A DNA stretch of 64,000 nucleotides from Kofleriaceae bacterium. GTDB lineage: Bacteria; Myxococcota_A; Polyangia; Haliangiales; Haliangiaceae. The translations under genes were made by a program, and so were the position numbers. The DNA lies in assembly GCA_046597055.1 (NCBI GenBank), contig JBKJLC010000084.1, positions 1-64,000 on the forward strand, written 5' to 3'. Every line of letters starts with the position of its first letter. Positions within the stretch are counted from its first letter, which is position 1. Positions 20,963-25,905 of the stretch are shown one piece after another. Below the pieces are notes generated by a model. That model made no database searches. It saw only the letters and a program-made list of their open reading frames with translations, and was not told where the DNA came from.

Positions 20963-21807
20963 CCGGCGCGATGCAGCTCGGCTACAACACCAACGGCTTC
21001 GCGCACCACCGCCTGCTCGACGCCCTCGCGGTGATCGCGGAGATCGGCTATCGCGCGGTGGGCCTCACGCTCGACGTCCACCACCTCGACCCGTTCTCGG
21101 CCCGCCACACCGAGGAGCTCGACGACGTCGGCGCGGCCTGCCGCGACCTCGGCCTGGTGCCCGTGATCGAGACCGGCGCCCGGTTCCTGCTCGATCCTCG
21201 CCGCAAGCACCGGCCCACGCTGCTGTCGGCCGACCCGCGCGAGCGCGCGACCCGGATCGACTTCCTGACCATGGCGATCGACGTCGCGGCGGCGGTCGGC
21301 GCGTCGGTGGTGTCGCTGTGGTCGGGCTCGCCCGACGAGGGCGACGCCGCCGCGCCGGCGGCGCTCGACGACCGCCTCGCCGCCGGCCTGCGCGAGGTCT
21401 GCGCGCGGGCGCGCGACGCCGGCATCGTGGTCGGCTTCGAGCCCGAGCCCGGCATGTACCTCGAGGACATGGCCGGCTTCGCGCGGGTGCGGGCGCTGGT
21501 CGAGGACCCGGCGCTGAAGCTGACCCTCGATGTCGGCCACGCCCACATGACCGAGGACGCGGGCGCGGACGCCACCGTGCGCACGTGGGCTGCCGAGATC
21601 GTCAATGTCCACGTCGAGGGCATGCGCCGCACGCTGCATGACCATCTGGTGCCGTGGGAGGGCGACCTCGACGTGCGCGCCGTGCTGCGGACGCTGGGTG
21701 ACGTCGGGTATGCGGGGCCCGCGTGCTTCGAGCTGTCGCGGCATTCGCATGATGCAGCGCGGATCGCCCGGCGCGCGTTCGAGTACGTGACGGCTGCGCC
21801 GGCGTAG
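20959..21807 (+). CDS. sugar phosphate isomerase/epimerase (xylose isomerase-like TIM barrel)
   Basis: GYNTNGF, IETGARFLLDP, FEPEPGM, LDVGH, HDHL..GDLD; ATGA overlap. Confidence 0.88.
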   Translation: MTGAMQLGYNTNGFAHHRLLDALAVIAEIGYRAVGLTLDVHHLDPFSARHTEELDDVGAACRDLGLVPVIETGARFLLDPRRKHRPTLLSADPRERATRIDFLTMAIDVAAAVGASVVSLWSGSPDEGDAAAPAALDDRLAAGLREVCARARDAGIVVGFEPEPGMYLEDMAGFARVRALVEDPALKLTLDVGHAHMTEDAGADATVRTWAAEIVNVHVEGMRRTLHDHLVPWEGDLDVRAVLRTLGDVGYAGPACFELSRHSHDAARIARRAFEYVTAAPA

Positions 21808-21865
21808 CCGAGTCGGTCGTACTGCTGGCGATCCGGGGTCGCGGGCCTGGTGCGGGGACGGGGTC

Positions 21866-22078
21866 GGGGTCGTCGCGGCAGGGCCTGTGGACGCTGGCGC
21901 CGCCGTGGCCAGCCGCGCCTTCGAGGCGAGGACGTTGCCGCGGAAGGGTGCGGGGCGCGCCTGCCCACCGCGGCTTGGATTGCTGCGCCTTCGAGTCGCG
22001 GGGGGCGGCCAGCGGCGAAGGTGGGCGCACCAATCCACAGCGCCCACAGTCCGGTGACTGCCCCTGATCTGTAAAAAC
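21866..22078 (-). repeat. left copy of a ~213-bp structured inverted repeat flanking the HNH gene
   Basis: Reverse complement aligns to 23644-23856 at roughly 85% by manual alignment. Confidence 0.92.
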
Positions 22079-22184
22079 AACAGAGCGCAGAGCTGTCACA
22101 GCGCACGACGGCGCCGACACGGCGAACGTGTTGATCTGCACTCCCGTGCAGGGGATCGTGAGTGTCAGACTGCCATGCTAGTCA

Positions 22185-23462
22185 ATGGTGATGCTCGCCG
22201 AGATGATGGTGTTGGGGGATCGGATTGCGGAGCAGGCGGCGCACCTGGACGCGGCCCTGTTTCGATTGCTGACCGATCTGCGGCAGTTCGATGCGGCCGG
22301 CGGCTGGTACCAGGCGGGCGCGCGCTCGTGCGCACACTGGCTGTCGTGGCGGGTCGGCTGGGATCTCGGGACGGCGCGGGAGCACGTGCGGGTGGCGCGG
22401 CGGCTGGGCGAGTTGCCCAACGTCGGGGCGGAGCTGGAGAAGGGCGCGCTGTCGTACTCGAAGGTCCGTGCGATCACGCGGGTGGCCACGCCGGCCACCG
22501 AAGACTGCCTGGTGCTCTTCGCGCGCAAGACGACCGCGGCACAGCTGGAGAAGATCTGCCGCCAGTACGGGACGGTGCGGCGGCTCGCCGAGAAGGGCGC
22601 GGAGGGCGATCGAGCCCGGCGTCACGTCGGCCGCCGCGATCTGTCGGACGGCATGGTCCGCATCGAAGCGGTCCTGCATCCCGACGAGGCCGCCGTGCTG
22701 TGGGCGGCGATCGAGCGCAGCGCCCGGGACGCTTCCGCGGAAACGTCGGGTACGACCGCCCGGTTCGATCGCGCGGATGGCCTGGTGGCGATGGGGCAAG
22801 CCGTCGTGCGGGGGGAGCGCCCCGAGCGGTCGCCGGTGGAGGTCATCATGACCGTGCCGCGGGAAGCGCTCGCGCTCGACGCGGCCCCGAGCGAGAACCC
22901 GGCCGACCAGCTCGGCTGTCTGACCGACGGTGGACACGTCTCGCCGGAAGGGGCGCGCCGGCTGTGCTGTGACGCCGGCGTGGTCGAGGTCGTCACCGAC
23001 GAGGCGGGGCAGCCCCTGTCGGTCGGTCGCAAGACCCGCACGATCCCGGCGCCGATCAAGCGCGCGCTCCTCCTCCGCGATCAGGGCTGCCGGTTCCCGG
23101 GCTGCACCGATCGCCGGTTCCTCGACGGCCACCACATCCAGCACTGGGCCGACGGGGGCGAGACCTCGCTCGATAACCTCGTGACCGCGTGCAGCCGTCA
23201 TCATCGGTTCGTTCACGAGCACGGCTACCGCGTCGAGCTGCGTGATGGCTTGCCGGTCTTCTTCAATCCGCATGGCGTCGAGGTCCACGCCACCCCGCCG
23301 CGTCCGTCCCTCGGACTGCTGTCCTGGGACTACCTCCGCGAGCTCAATCGCGACCAGGACATCACGGCGCAGACGGGCCAGTGCGAGTGGGACGGGCTCC
23401 CGGTCAACTATGGCTACGTCCTGCAAGACCTGCACTACTACGCCACGCACGACACGCCGTGA
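22185..23462 (+). CDS. DUF222 (13E12-repeat family) HNH endonuclease
   Basis: GARSCAHWLSWR, AREHVRVAR, LSYSKVRAITR, ARRLCCDA, RDQGCRFPGC, HHIQHWADGGETSLDNLVTACSRHHRFVH. Confidence 0.92.
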   Translation: MVMLAEMMVLGDRIAEQAAHLDAALFRLLTDLRQFDAAGGWYQAGARSCAHWLSWRVGWDLGTAREHVRVARRLGELPNVGAELEKGALSYSKVRAITRVATPATEDCLVLFARKTTAAQLEKICRQYGTVRRLAEKGAEGDRARRHVGRRDLSDGMVRIEAVLHPDEAAVLWAAIERSARDASAETSGTTARFDRADGLVAMGQAVVRGERPERSPVEVIMTVPREALALDAAPSENPADQLGCLTDGGHVSPEGARRLCCDAGVVEVVTDEAGQPLSVGRKTRTIPAPIKRALLLRDQGCRFPGCTDRRFLDGHHIQHWADGGETSLDNLVTACSRHHRFVHEHGYRVELRDGLPVFFNPHGVEVHATPPRPSLGLLSWDYLRELNRDQDITAQTGQCEWDGLPVNYGYVLQDLHYYATHDTP

Positions 23463-23480
23463 TCGTCGGCCGTCGGTCCG

Positions 23481-23524
23481 TCGGTCGGTCGGTCGGTCGG
23501 TCGGTCGGTCGGTCGGTCGGTCGG
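23481..23524 (+). repeat. (TCGG)11 microsatellite
   Basis: Eleven perfect TCGG units with degenerate units on both sides, starting 18 nt after the HNH stop. Confidence 0.95.
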
Positions 23525-23643
23525 TCGTGGTCGTCGGACGTCGGTCGCAGCTCCCGGTCGCCGGCGTGGCGGGCCGCGCAAGAGCGCGCTGGTGGTTGGC
23601 CGCTCTGGTTCGATCCAGCACGGCTCTGGTGCTGGTTCGGAAA

Positions 23644-23856
23644 GTTTTTGAAGATCAGGGGTAGTCGCGGCCTGTGGGCTCTGTGGATTGGCGCGCCCAT
23701 CACGCTGCTGCCCACCGCCGGCGCCCCGAAGGCGCGGCAATCCAAGCCGCGGTGGGCAGGCGCGCCCCATCACGCTTCCGCGGAAACCTCCCTCGCCTCG
23801 AAGGCGCGGCTGTCCACGGCGGCGTCAGAGTCCACAGGCCCTGCCGCGACGAGCCC
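23644..23856 (+). repeat. right copy of the ~213-bp structured inverted repeat (candidate ncRNA or ssDNA structure)
   Basis: Stems GGCCTGTGGGCTCTG/CAGAGTCCACAGGCC, GGATTGGCGCGCC/GGCGCGGCAATCC and AGCCGCG/CGCGGCT; compensatory changes relative to the left copy. Confidence 0.92.
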
Positions 23857-23932
23857 TTCGACGTTCACCGCCCGCCTCACACGGGCTGTGAGGGCCAGGC
23901 CGCGTCACGCGGGCCGCGCGGCGCACGCCGCG

Positions 23933-23948
23933 TGGCACAGGCTGTGCT
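23933..23948 (+). promoter_or_regulatory. putative sigma54 -24/-12 promoter
   Basis: TGGCAC-AGGCT-GTGCT, 13 nt before ATG 23961. Confidence 0.5.
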
Positions 23949-23960
23949 TCGACTGGCATC

Positions 23961-24512
23961 ATGCCGCCCATGCACCGCCCGTCGCCCTCGCTGTTGCCGC
24001 TTCTGCTGGTGCTCCTGCCGCTCCTTGCCTGTGACCCCGAGCTTCACCGCATGGCCGTCGCCGCCGAGCGGGTCCCGTGCACCGGCGTGGGCAACCAGAT
24101 GTGTCTACTCGTCACCGATCTCGACCAGGCCGCCGCCACGCCGACGCTCTTCTACGACGGCATCGCGGGCTACCAGCATCAGTGGGGCCGCGCGGTCGAG
24201 ATCGACTATACGCTCGAGTCGATCGACGACCCGCCGGCGGATGGCTCGAGCCAGCGCCGGACGGCCGAGCGCGTCGAGGTGGTCAGCACCGCGGCCGCGG
24301 GTGCCACGTTCACCACGCGCTTTCCGGTCTCGTCCCAGCCCTGGTTCGAGCTCGGCGCGACGGGCGTGGTGCTGATCGATGGCACGCCGGTGGTCAGTCC
24401 CGACGAGCTGCGCGCGCGGGTAGTCGGCCCGCTCGAGCAGGCGCTCGAGGTCGTGATGGCGTACGACGGCGCCGGTGGCCTGGCGCTCCGGTCCGCCACG
24501 AGCGTGCCCTGA
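23961..24512 (+). CDS. DUF4377-like lipoprotein
   Basis: Lipobox LLAC; VPCTGVGNQMCLLV, FYDGIAGY, PPADGSS. Confidence 0.78.
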   Translation: MPPMHRPSPSLLPLLLVLLPLLACDPELHRMAVAAERVPCTGVGNQMCLLVTDLDQAAATPTLFYDGIAGYQHQWGRAVEIDYTLESIDDPPADGSSQRRTAERVEVVSTAAAGATFTTRFPVSSQPWFELGATGVVLIDGTPVVSPDELRARVVGPLEQALEVVMAYDGAGGLALRSATSVP

Positions 24513-24534
24513 CCGAGCACCGTCGCGCGGGCGG

Positions 24535-25905
24535 CTACCGCCGCATCAGGTCGAGGATGAAGCGCTTCACGTCGGTGGCGGCGAACCGGTCGCGGCGCTG
24601 TGAGCCCTCGCTGCAGAGGAGGACCGGGCCCTCGCCGTCGCGCGCGGGCAGCCGGCCGTGTGAGCCCCTGACCCCGCTGGCCTCGATCGGGATCACGTCC
24701 ATCGTGTAGCGGAGGCCGATCGCCTTCTGGGCCAGCCGGAGCGCGGCGCGCACCTTGGCGGTGGGGCCGTCGAACAGCAGCTCGGCCGGATCGTAGCCGG
24801 GCTTGCGGTGGATCTCGACGGTCGGCGCGAAGTCGGGGGCGCGGGCGTCGTCGAGCCAGTAGTAGTAGGTGAACCAGGCCTCGGGATCGGCGACCAGCAC
24901 CAGATCGCCGGCGCGTGGGTGGTCGAGGCCGGCGGCGCGCTTGCCATCGTCTCCCAGAACCTCGGCGACCCCGGGCAGGCCGGTGAGCGCCTCGCGGGCG
25001 CGCGGCAACACCGAGGGATCCGACACGTAGACATGGGCGATCTGGTGATCGGCGACCGCGAAGGCCTTCGACGCGAAGGTGTCGAGCAGCTCGCCGGCCG
25101 GGTTGGTCACGACCTCGAGCAGGCCGGCCTCGCGCAGGCGGCGGTTGACGTGAACCGGGCGATGGACGTCGGTGAGGCCGTACTCCGAGAGGACGACGAC
25201 CTTGGCGCCGGCGGCGCGCACGTGATCGATGAGCGCGCCGGCGACCTGATCGATCGCGGCGGCGGCGGCCTGGGCCTCGAGCCCGCGCGAGCCGAACCGC
25301 TGCAGGTCGTAGTCGAGGTGCGGCAGGTAGACCAGGGTCAGGCTGGGCTGGTGCTGGTCGAAGACGAAGCGGGCGGCCTCGGCGATCCAGCGCGAGCTCG
25401 GCAGGCCGGCCCGCGGCCCCCAGAAGTCGAACAGCGGGAACTCGCCGAGGCGGGTCGCCAGGCGCTCGCCGAGCGAGGCCGGCTGGGTGTAGACGCCCGG
25501 CGACTTGCGTCCGTCGGCGTGGTAGACGGGCCGCGGCGTGACCAGCCAGTCGGTCGACGCGCCCATCGCGTACCACCAGAACAGGTTGGCCACCGTGACG
25601 TCGCTGCCCAGCTCGCGGCGGGCCGCGGTCCACAGCTTGTCGCCGCCGACCAGGCGGTTCGACTGTCGCCACAGCCAGATCTCCGACTGGTCGCGGAAGA
25701 ACCAGCCGTTGCCGACGATGCCGTGCTCGCGCGGCATCGCGCCGGTGAGCAGGGTCGACTGGGCCGAGCAGGTCACCGCCGGCAACACGGTGCCGAGTGG
25801 CGCGCAGAAGCCGGCCGCACCGAGCGCCGACAGGCGGGGCATGTGGAGCAGGAGATCGGGGGTCAGCCCGACCACGTCGATCACGACGACCTGGTTGACA
25901 GTCAT
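24535..25905 (-). CDS. eboF: alkaline phosphatase/nucleotide pyrophosphatase family, EboF-like
   Basis: VIDVVGL, PAVTCSAQ, HGIVGNGW, NLFWWY, YLPHLDY, VADHQIAH, HRKPGYDP, GSHGR. Confidence 0.88.
   Translation of the reverse strand: MTVNQVVVIDVVGLTPDLLLHMPRLSALGAAGFCAPLGTVLPAVTCSAQSTLLTGAMPREHGIVGNGWFFRDQSEIWLWRQSNRLVGGDKLWTAARRELGSDVTVANLFWWYAMGASTDWLVTPRPVYHADGRKSPGVYTQPASLGERLATRLGEFPLFDFWGPRAGLPSSRWIAEAARFVFDQHQPSLTLVYLPHLDYDLQRFGSRGLEAQAAAAAIDQVAGALIDHVRAAGAKVVVLSEYGLTDVHRPVHVNRRLREAGLLEVVTNPAGELLDTFASKAFAVADHQIAHVYVSDPSVLPRAREALTGLPGVAEVLGDDGKRAAGLDHPRAGDLVLVADPEAWFTYYYWLDDARAPDFAPTVEIHRKPGYDPAELLFDGPTAKVRAALRLAQKAIGLRYTMDVIPIEASGVRGSHGRLPARDGEGPVLLCSEGSQRRDRFAATDVKRFILDLMRR

Follow-up and report, generated by a model that had tools for sequence, protein, structure and literature searches.

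A palindromic DNA word within DUF222-HNH nuclease genes and the predicted ParB/KorB-like domain that may read it

A nuclease gene and a palindrome shared with its flanking repeats

The window analyzed here comprises 64,000 nucleotides at the start of contig JBKJLC010000084.1 (C208 in this work) from assembly GCA_046597055.1 of a soil myxobacterium (Kofleriaceae bacterium). It carries a gene for a predicted DUF222-HNH nuclease, set between two inverted copies of a structured repeat (Table 1). A palindromic word within the coding sequence of this gene recurs in both repeats, and we asked what this word is and what might read it.

The gene product matches the Pfam families DUF222 (PF02720, E 5.7e-21, 75.6 bits against a cut-off of 24.4) and, following it, HNH (PF01844, E 1.2e-07, 32.2 bits against a cut-off of 21.4). 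The HNH and zinc residues D299, C302, C307, H316, H317, N331, C336, H339, and H340, which are invariant in 43 aligned relatives, are all present in the window protein, and its full-length structural model reaches a predicted local distance difference test (pLDDT) score of 86.8. The gene is multi-copy in this genome, with two complete copies (on C208 and C262) and five contig ends that break within further copies (C86, C236, C146, C205, and C4). The C262 paralog has only the open reading frame (ORF) and 25 nt in common with the window locus, so that any cis-acting site obliged to travel with the gene must lie inside the gene. These 25 nt (22160-22184, TGTCAGACTGCCATGCTAGTCAATGG) directly precede the ATG, constitute the sole noncoding sequence common to the two loci, are kept in C205 and C4, and may hold the start signals of the gene. 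A promoter and terminator scan of 21800-24000 found neither.

Table 1. Positions of the gene, palindromic sites, repeat modules, and surrounding block in the window
Feature	Position	Strand	Description
DUF222-HNH nuclease gene	22185..23462	+	425 aa
In-gene site 1	22729..22746		ACGCTTCCGCGGAAACGT, core TTCCGCGGAA at 22733-22742; in frame, D-A-S-A-E-T
Right flank site	23772..23789		ACGCTTCCGCGGAAACCT; apical loop, arm 2 of right repeat; 310 nt past the stop codon
Left flank site	21932..21949		ACGTTGCCGCGGAAGGGT (reverse complement ACCCTTCCGCGGCAACGT); same loop of the inverted left repeat; ~235 nt ahead of the ATG
Decayed site 2	22936..22953		ACGTCTCGCCGGAAGGGG, peptide H-V-S-P-E-G; start of the helix preceding RRLCCDA
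Left Y-shaped REP-like module	21866..22078	-	inverted copy of the right module, 87% identical
Right Y-shaped REP-like module	23644..23856	+	outer stem and two arms; stems conserved, loops variable
2.7-kb block	21798..24539		both modules, HNH gene, (GGTC)n run, DUF4377 ORF

The original prediction, made from the letters of the window, was that a palindromic site in the gene recurs in the loops of both flanking repeats, and each part of it held. The 16-mer ACGCTTCCGCGGAAAC is present at both 22729-22744 and 23772-23787, the reverse complement of 21931-21946 (CTTCCGCGGCAACGTC) agrees with 22732-22747 at 15 of 16 positions, and both flank copies lie within the apical loop of the second arm of their repeat. 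This loop spans ~33-36 nt by RNA folding, DNA folding, and alignment of the repeat copies. A repeat search extended the match between gene and right flank to 19 nt at 95% identity, and that between gene and left flank to 28 nt at 86%. Allowing up to two mismatches, the 16-mer has four matches in the window against 0.01 expected, one of which is the palindrome overlapping itself on the minus strand; its core TTCCGCGGAA occurs twice against 0.04 expected, a count that none of 100 shuffles reached. The two flank copies cannot be counted as independent, as the repeats that hold them are themselves inverted copies. Across the whole genome (8,376,746 bases) there are six exact copies of TTCCGCGGAA, which by our arithmetic is about the number expected from base composition, and four of these are located within or next to the two complete DUF222-HNH genes.

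Within the protein, site 1 encodes residues 181-187, a low-confidence linker (pLDDT block 61) after a helix formed by residues 166-185. The linker diverges from that of the C262 paralog right after the site and differs from it by a 9-nt indel. In sequence assembled from public run X3, a contig matches the gene to 22742, where the 10-mer ends, and from there runs into a different linker; this branch is a further paralog or a strain variant diverging exactly at the site. Runs X1-X3, all from one study, contain 66-77% of the window as short contigs and provided no joints. A run from another study with a low share of the window (X4) gave only two weak joints, and the runs together are uninformative on excision or inversion.

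Selection on the palindrome across the DUF222-HNH family

We examined 80 loci encoding relatives of 33-75% identity, drawn from Myxococcota, Binatia, Gammaproteobacteria, Actinomycetota, and one Gemmatimonadota record, for a total of 82 ORFs including the two complete ones of this genome. The original prediction held that the SAET-like peptide may be constrained by DNA sequence, which would be contradicted if synonymous positions at the motif varied freely. They do not. The 10-mer TTCCGCGGAA occurs 63 times in 120,795 bases of ORF, whereas 200 synonymous-codon shuffles within each ORF, which preserve the protein sequence and codon usage of every ORF, yielded a mean of 0.72 and a maximum of 4. 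It occurs five further times in 272,739 bases of flank, against ~0.3 by our arithmetic. Perfect 14-nt palindromes are likewise in excess, numbering 94 against 26.4 +/- 5.6 in the same kind of shuffle. Ser-Ala-Glu tripeptides appear 112 times, against 21 predicted from composition, and 65 of the 112 are written TCC-GCG-GAA, an encoding for which the codon usage of these ORFs predicts 3.3%. Furthermore, the base preceding the tripeptide is a T in 86 of the 112 cases, against 13.8% overall.

Most in-ORF copies of the 10-mer (59 of 63) share the x-S-A-E-x frame, and the other four read A-L-P-R-K-R. These other-frame copies (L054:3094, L061:2878, and L062:3148, reading A-L-P-R-K-R, and L060:2563, reading F-P-R-K), which in three of the four genes lie near the C-terminus, show a DNA word kept irrespective of reading frame. 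In loci that lack the 10-mer, the same region holds different palindromes in an unchanged frame and with a changed peptide: ACGTTCCCGCGGGAACGT (VPAGT), ACGTTACCGCGGTAACTT (VTAVT), ATGTTGCCGCGGCAACGT (VAAAT), ACGTTTCTGCAGAAACGT, ACGTTTCAGCTGAAACGT, and CGTCTCCGCGGAGACG, with VSAET also among the peptides of such alternatives. Since palindromes that change the peptide occupy the same frame, the palindrome is the conserved thing and the peptide follows from it, much as had been predicted. Outside the core, the arms vary in mirror fashion, as GTT..AAC (V..T), GAT..ATC (D..S), GCT..AGC (A..A), and TCT..AGA (S..E). Aligning 95 sites gave the 18-bp dyad consensus ACGTTTCCG-CGGAAACGT, in which the core CCG-CGG is fixed in 83-88 sites across phyla.

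Of the 80 loci, 38 have the exact 10-mer in their ORF and 48 have a 16-nt palindrome in frame; counted by hand from record names, 33 of 53 assemblies have the 10-mer in such an ORF. The 43 aligned relatives together contain 43 in-frame palindromes, with 22 at residues 165-215, five at 216-245, eight at 246-262 (the start of the helix preceding the conserved RRLxCDA), three at the extreme C-terminus, and five elsewhere (one before residue 165 and four at 263-399). Most sites thus fall within a disordered linker or at a single set position further along the protein. Some Actinomycetota records contain in-frame arrays of three to six palindromes within a single gene (L080:2549-2804, L069:1010-1310, and L075:2570-2675), spaced by 36-195 nt, mostly 45-51, and encoding D-S-A-E-S or D-S-A-E-A repeatedly. 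The highest count per gene is six copies, in L080, with an in-frame spacing of 36-69 nt.

Together, these comparisons demonstrate, at the level of sequence, selection on the word as DNA rather than as peptide in DUF222-HNH genes of at least four phyla. Of the "binding, cleavage or pairing" site originally proposed, the DNA-level site stands, and of the three roles we favor binding, as set out below.

Flank copies, repeat modules, and the inserted block

To place the flank copies in a genomic context, we scanned the whole genome with a weight matrix built from 91 in-ORF sites of other genomes only, using the reversed genome as the null. Only five matches exceed the null maximum of 17.3, and every one is at an HNH locus: the gene site (25.7), the right loop (23.5), two sites in the C262 paralog (19.8 and 19.5), and, fifth in the genome, the left loop (18.4). 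Enrichment of the motif at HNH loci, which the original prediction had made a point of, is thus borne out by three sites in the window and two in the paralog. The two remaining exact 10-mers of the genome score below 12.7, as their outer arms misfit. In the window, scores of at least 10 are confined to the gene site and the two flank sites. The decayed site 2 of the window gene scores below 10, and in pairwise alignment its counterpart in the C262 paralog is the intact ACGTTTCCGCGGAAGGGG, which accounts for the 19.5.

Flank sites recur in other genomes. Scores of at least 18 are reached in the flanks of 6 of the 80 loci (8 sites in 264.7 kb), with none in reversed controls. Among 15 same-genus loci, six have flank sites; five of the 15 duplicate members of the 80, leaving four of ten new loci. 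When each gene's own 12-nt core was sought in its flanks, exact copies were found at 6 of 50 loci, whereas swapping cores between loci gave a mean of 0.045. In the same-genus genome G012, stretches upstream of HNH genes (L120:449-833 and L125:2410-2623) contain two to three sites in tandem 157-210-nt units, an arrangement that looks like an operator or centromere-like array.

Odd imperfections of a gene's site reappear in the copies in its flanks. This is seen in the window as well as in L031 (TTCCGAGGAA in both gene and flank), L027 (..AACTT in both), and L013 (24 nt identical). The left and right window sites differ at three positions, at each of which one of them equals the gene site; their ancestor can therefore equal the gene site at 18 of 18 positions, including an off-consensus C at position 4. 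Shared imperfections and such an ancestor argue for copying between gene and flank and against independent convergence, and the window flank copies look, from their sequence, to have been copied from the site within the gene. Long flanking inverted repeats occur at just one other locus, L031 (232 nt, 87.5%), where a site lies on either side, just inside the repeats. Short inverted repeats flank the genes of L046 and L052, and the flanks of eight loci are too short for this test.

The repeats themselves are Y-shaped modules whose architecture is supported by an alignment of 15 genome copies, by the DNA fold of arm 2, and by an RNA fold with a z-score of -4.56. Five further copies of the window subfamily adjoin the HNH fragments at contig ends, on the 3′ side in C86, C236, and C146 and on the 5′ side in C205 and C4, which indicates that the repeat-gene-repeat unit is itself multi-copy and that the assembly breaks in it. 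A second subfamily, ~70% identical (C119, C48, C285, C144, C259, C167, and others), lies directly upstream of a 250-330-aa ORF matching Y1_Tnp (PF01797, E 1.2e-07, 32.3 bits, cut-off 23). Similarly, in the same-genus genome G009, all seven loci bearing its nine repeat copies have a Y1_Tnp match by tblastn, and none of the seven has an HNH gene or the palindrome. From these relatives, we identify the flanking repeats as repetitive extragenic palindromic (REP)-like modules of a single-strand-DNA transposase system of the RAYT/IS200-like kind. The two window copies flank the HNH gene and no transposase.

At one G009 locus (L090:1501-1975, on G009:C48), two modules separated by 186 nt face each other head to head immediately 5′ of a Y1_Tnp gene, oriented like the window's modules around the HNH gene and without cargo. 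The 186-nt spacer of this pair has no likeness to the inner flanks of the window gene. BLAST of the 200-bp repeat against the 80 related HNH loci found no match, and the repeat is therefore not a family-wide partner of the gene. A search of 21500-24200 against Rfam (E up to 1) returned nothing but a spurious miRNA match, located in the (GGTC)n run. In C205 and C4, a near-palindrome lies ~100 nt upstream of the HNH start, between module and gene (GTCTCCCGCGGAGAC and GTCTTCCGCCGAGAC, respectively); it resembles the GTCTCCGCGGAGAC variant found in L020.

Both modules and the gene belong to a 2.7-kb block bounded by a sugar-phosphate isomerase-like gene ending near 21797 and a convergent gene ending near 24540. 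In three same-genus genomes (L082, L084, and L085) the block is missing and these two convergent genes abut, which identifies the block as an insertion; this comparison shows, at the level of gene order, that the whole cassette was recently inserted. The block also holds a (GGTC)n/(CGGT)n microsatellite of ~15 units (23464-23531), beginning two bases past the HNH stop codon and absent in the C262 paralog, and a 183-aa ORF (23961-24512) with a signal- or lipoprotein-like start and a DUF4377 match (Pfam E 7e-12). This ORF may have come with the insertion as cargo or may have been gained separately.

We also considered a homing model in which the palindrome marks the empty site. On the assumption that the palindrome is the recognition site, this model is not supported, as the three empty loci lack it: the best matrix score at the junction is 4.3-5.9 in two relatives and ~0 in the third, and the best anywhere in the three loci is 4.3-7.4. 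In two of the three relatives, this weak best score falls exactly at the junction, on a CCGCGG stretch. We give this coincidence no weight because CCGCGG occurs 19,569 times in the genome.

A predicted reader domain and possible roles of the word

The N-terminal part of the protein offers a candidate reader for the word. Residues 1-150, modeled alone, reached a pLDDT of 94.2, and the best match among 48,161 chains was the DNA-binding domain of ParB on parS (6s6h_B, chain residues 141-253; Z 8.5, root-mean-square deviation (rmsd) 3.5, 111 aligned). Spo0J came second (1vz0; Z 7.8, rmsd 2.4, 90 aligned), followed by KorB (8qa8, Z 6.2) and KorB on operator DNA (1r71, Z 5.9). The next, unrelated structural match has a Z of 5.2, and P1 ParB and SopB score 3.9. 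Foldseek likewise placed ParB or Noc at all nine of its best matches to the N-terminal domain (E 0.09-0.5). The full-length model had no Foldseek match at E <=0.001, and a PDB sequence search with the family profile returned HNH-domain matches only, at E 0.02 or worse.

The word also resembles the sites bound by these proteins. When compared with parS (TGTTTCAC-GTGAAACA) and the Noc-binding site, NBS (TATTTCCC-GGGAAATA), as these are given in PMC7383237, the family consensus CGTTTCCG-CGGAAACG agrees with each at 10 of 16 positions, with TTTC at an equal offset from the centre. Its dyad symmetry continues through the centre of the site in the CGCG, TGCA, and AGCT variants, and the in-gene site, as single-stranded DNA, folds no better than shuffles (z +1.41). 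These two properties favor a duplex read by two identical subunits over a hairpin. By analogy and on the predicted fold, we therefore favor binding of duplex DNA by the protein's own predicted ParB-like domain.

Our preferred interpretation, to which we assign a probability of roughly 55%, is that the palindrome is an 18-bp DNA word, kept in frame against codon usage, on which the protein likely docks through its own predicted ParB/KorB-like domain. Several observations weigh against it. The fold matches are modest, and by the aligner's own caution a Z below about 13 for helical domains may reflect a mere common arrangement. Pfam did not find the N-terminal CTPase (ParB/Srx) domain of ParB, and the structural matches cover the DNA-binding part only, such that the modeled likeness is a modest one at the fold level of the DNA-binding domain and does not establish membership of the ParB family. 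Covariation of the site variants with residues 44-128, sought by eye, was not seen, which the near invariance of the putative recognition helix LSYSKVRAxTR would explain. Flank sites occur in only about one-eighth of loci. Finally, the genome's other five HNH-flanking modules lack the site, so flank sites are dispensable for persistence of the cassette; three of these modules keep a small hairpin there, which fits a structural role of that loop.

Could the word instead act as a single-strand hairpin, in DNA or RNA? It would then be a REP-like stem-loop for the Y1 transposase or another hairpin enzyme, or an mRNA structure controlling translation or decay. The compensatory change of the outer arms is what a hairpin stem would produce, and the flank copies sit at the arm tip of modules with relatives beside Y1_Tnp genes. 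In C236, C86, and C146, the decayed flank copies have lost the word and retained a small hairpin (for example, CGCTTC-CCA-GAAGCG). However, mirror change of both halves is equally expected from two identical protein subunits, and symmetry is held right through the centre, where a hairpin loop could vary and where CCG-CGG is instead nearly fixed. The in-gene site is also no stabler than its shuffles. Moreover, the transposase-associated modules here and in G009 lack the word, which is not dispersed in this genome (six copies). On balance, we regard a hairpin role as unlikely.

A separate alternative concerns the flank copies alone and is compatible with the preferred interpretation of the in-gene site. 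The window copies may be functionless by-products, left when a REP-like loop received a patch of the gene by short-tract gene conversion, and now decaying. The reconstructed common ancestor suits such a history, with the two flank sites having since drifted by one and two changes, as does the lack of a site in the other five HNH-flanking modules. Against it, other genomes have flank sites far more often than chance would give, and the ordered upstream arrays in L120 and L125 would not be expected of accidental patches; we consider this account somewhat more doubtful still than a hairpin role. That the word is merely a landing site for other mobile elements, through integrase attachment or group II intron homing and with no nuclease role, is very improbable: PMC13061034 describes REP13E12 regions of Mycobacterium tuberculosis with a putative prophage attachment site, yet no interruption at a site is seen in the 82 ORFs, and neither the repetition of the word, up to six times per gene, nor its link to one gene family across phyla would be explained.

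If the preferred interpretation holds and the word is a docking site, two N-terminal domains would bind the two half-sites of the duplex, as ParB does on parS, and docking would hold the HNH domain at its own locus. This could have either of two outcomes. By occupying sites within and ahead of its gene, which is potentially dangerous, the protein might repress that gene, much as KorB acts at operators. Alternatively, the tethered HNH domain might nick its own locus, and repair would carry copies of the gene or the word from one paralog to another and into DNA close by. Several observations fit the latter outcome without demonstrating it, including the gene-like flank copies, the linker divergence with its 9-nt indel, the X3 branch at 22742, the paralog sharing only its ORF and 25 nt, and gene conversion at REP13E12 loci as given in PMC13061034. 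A more specific version would make DUF222-HNH proteins self-addressed nucleases, which dock on a parS-like word in their own coding sequence and nick it, such that repair copies the gene and seeds the word nearby, here in REP-like loops whose Y1 transposase can move the cassette. We hold this version to be speculative and unlikely as it stands. If true, it would describe a selfish element of an undescribed kind riding on a second mobile system.

It is instructive to set this arrangement beside known systems. ParB-parS, Noc-NBS, and KorB-OB offer the closest likeness, in that the predicted fold of residues 20-150 matches their helix-turn-helix DNA-binding domains best, at modest scores. These proteins recognize 13-16-bp palindromes, and the DUF222-HNH site is a 16-18-bp perfect dyad that occurs inside genes and in short arrays. 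A parS site lies inside the B. subtilis spo0J gene, and sopC of the F plasmid is an array of 43-bp units. Unlike in ParB, Noc, and KorB, the candidate DNA-binding domain here is fused to an HNH nuclease, has no partition ATPase partner, and has its site in its own gene across phyla.

The flanking modules recall REP/REPIN elements and their RAYT transposases, as the ~200-bp repeats are structured, multi-copy, and found beside Y1_Tnp genes here and in G009, and the HNH cassette stands between two inverted modules just as the halves of a REPIN are inverted. In contrast to REPs of RAYT systems, which number tens to hundreds of dispersed and mostly intergenic copies in a genome, the palindrome is not the dispersed unit (six copies per genome) and the transposase-linked modules lack it; the window modules, at ~200 bp and with three arms, are also far larger than classical REPs and enclose a 1.6-kb cargo. 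A free-standing HNH homing gene is similar in being selfish-looking, multi-copy, and present or absent between close relatives. Such a gene interrupts or adjoins its target and is without it in its own copy, however, whereas the window site is intact inside the gene.

The REP13E12 (13E12-repeat) family of Mycobacterium tuberculosis has the same two Pfam domains, is multi-copy, and has no known function. In a 2026 preprint (PMC13061034), REP13E12 loci are among the most frequent gene-conversion sites of this species, with 87 events in 10 of 14 genes, a pattern that fits a nuclease acting on its own paralogs. Neither a palindrome nor a ParB-like domain was found described for DUF222-HNH or REP13E12 genes in the literature consulted, which consisted mainly of abstracts and included PMC10589994 and PMC13061034. 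Judged by titles and abstracts, literature matches to the 10-mer TTCCGCGGAA were primers or unrelated sites.

DUF222-HNH genes, comprising REP13E12 and many relatives, are common and multi-copy and still lack a function; the preprint refers to REP13E12 regions as loci that "lack defined biological function" (PMC13061034). A cognate word in the gene, together with a predicted ParB-like reader in its product, opens this gap to simple experiments. The word would also offer a clear natural example of how a DNA signal can constrain a coding sequence, and, if so, the peptide x-S-A-E-x (VPAGT and others elsewhere) would be largely a by-product of that signal. From the window it further emerges that REP-like modules, which belong to another mobile system, can receive the word in their loops.

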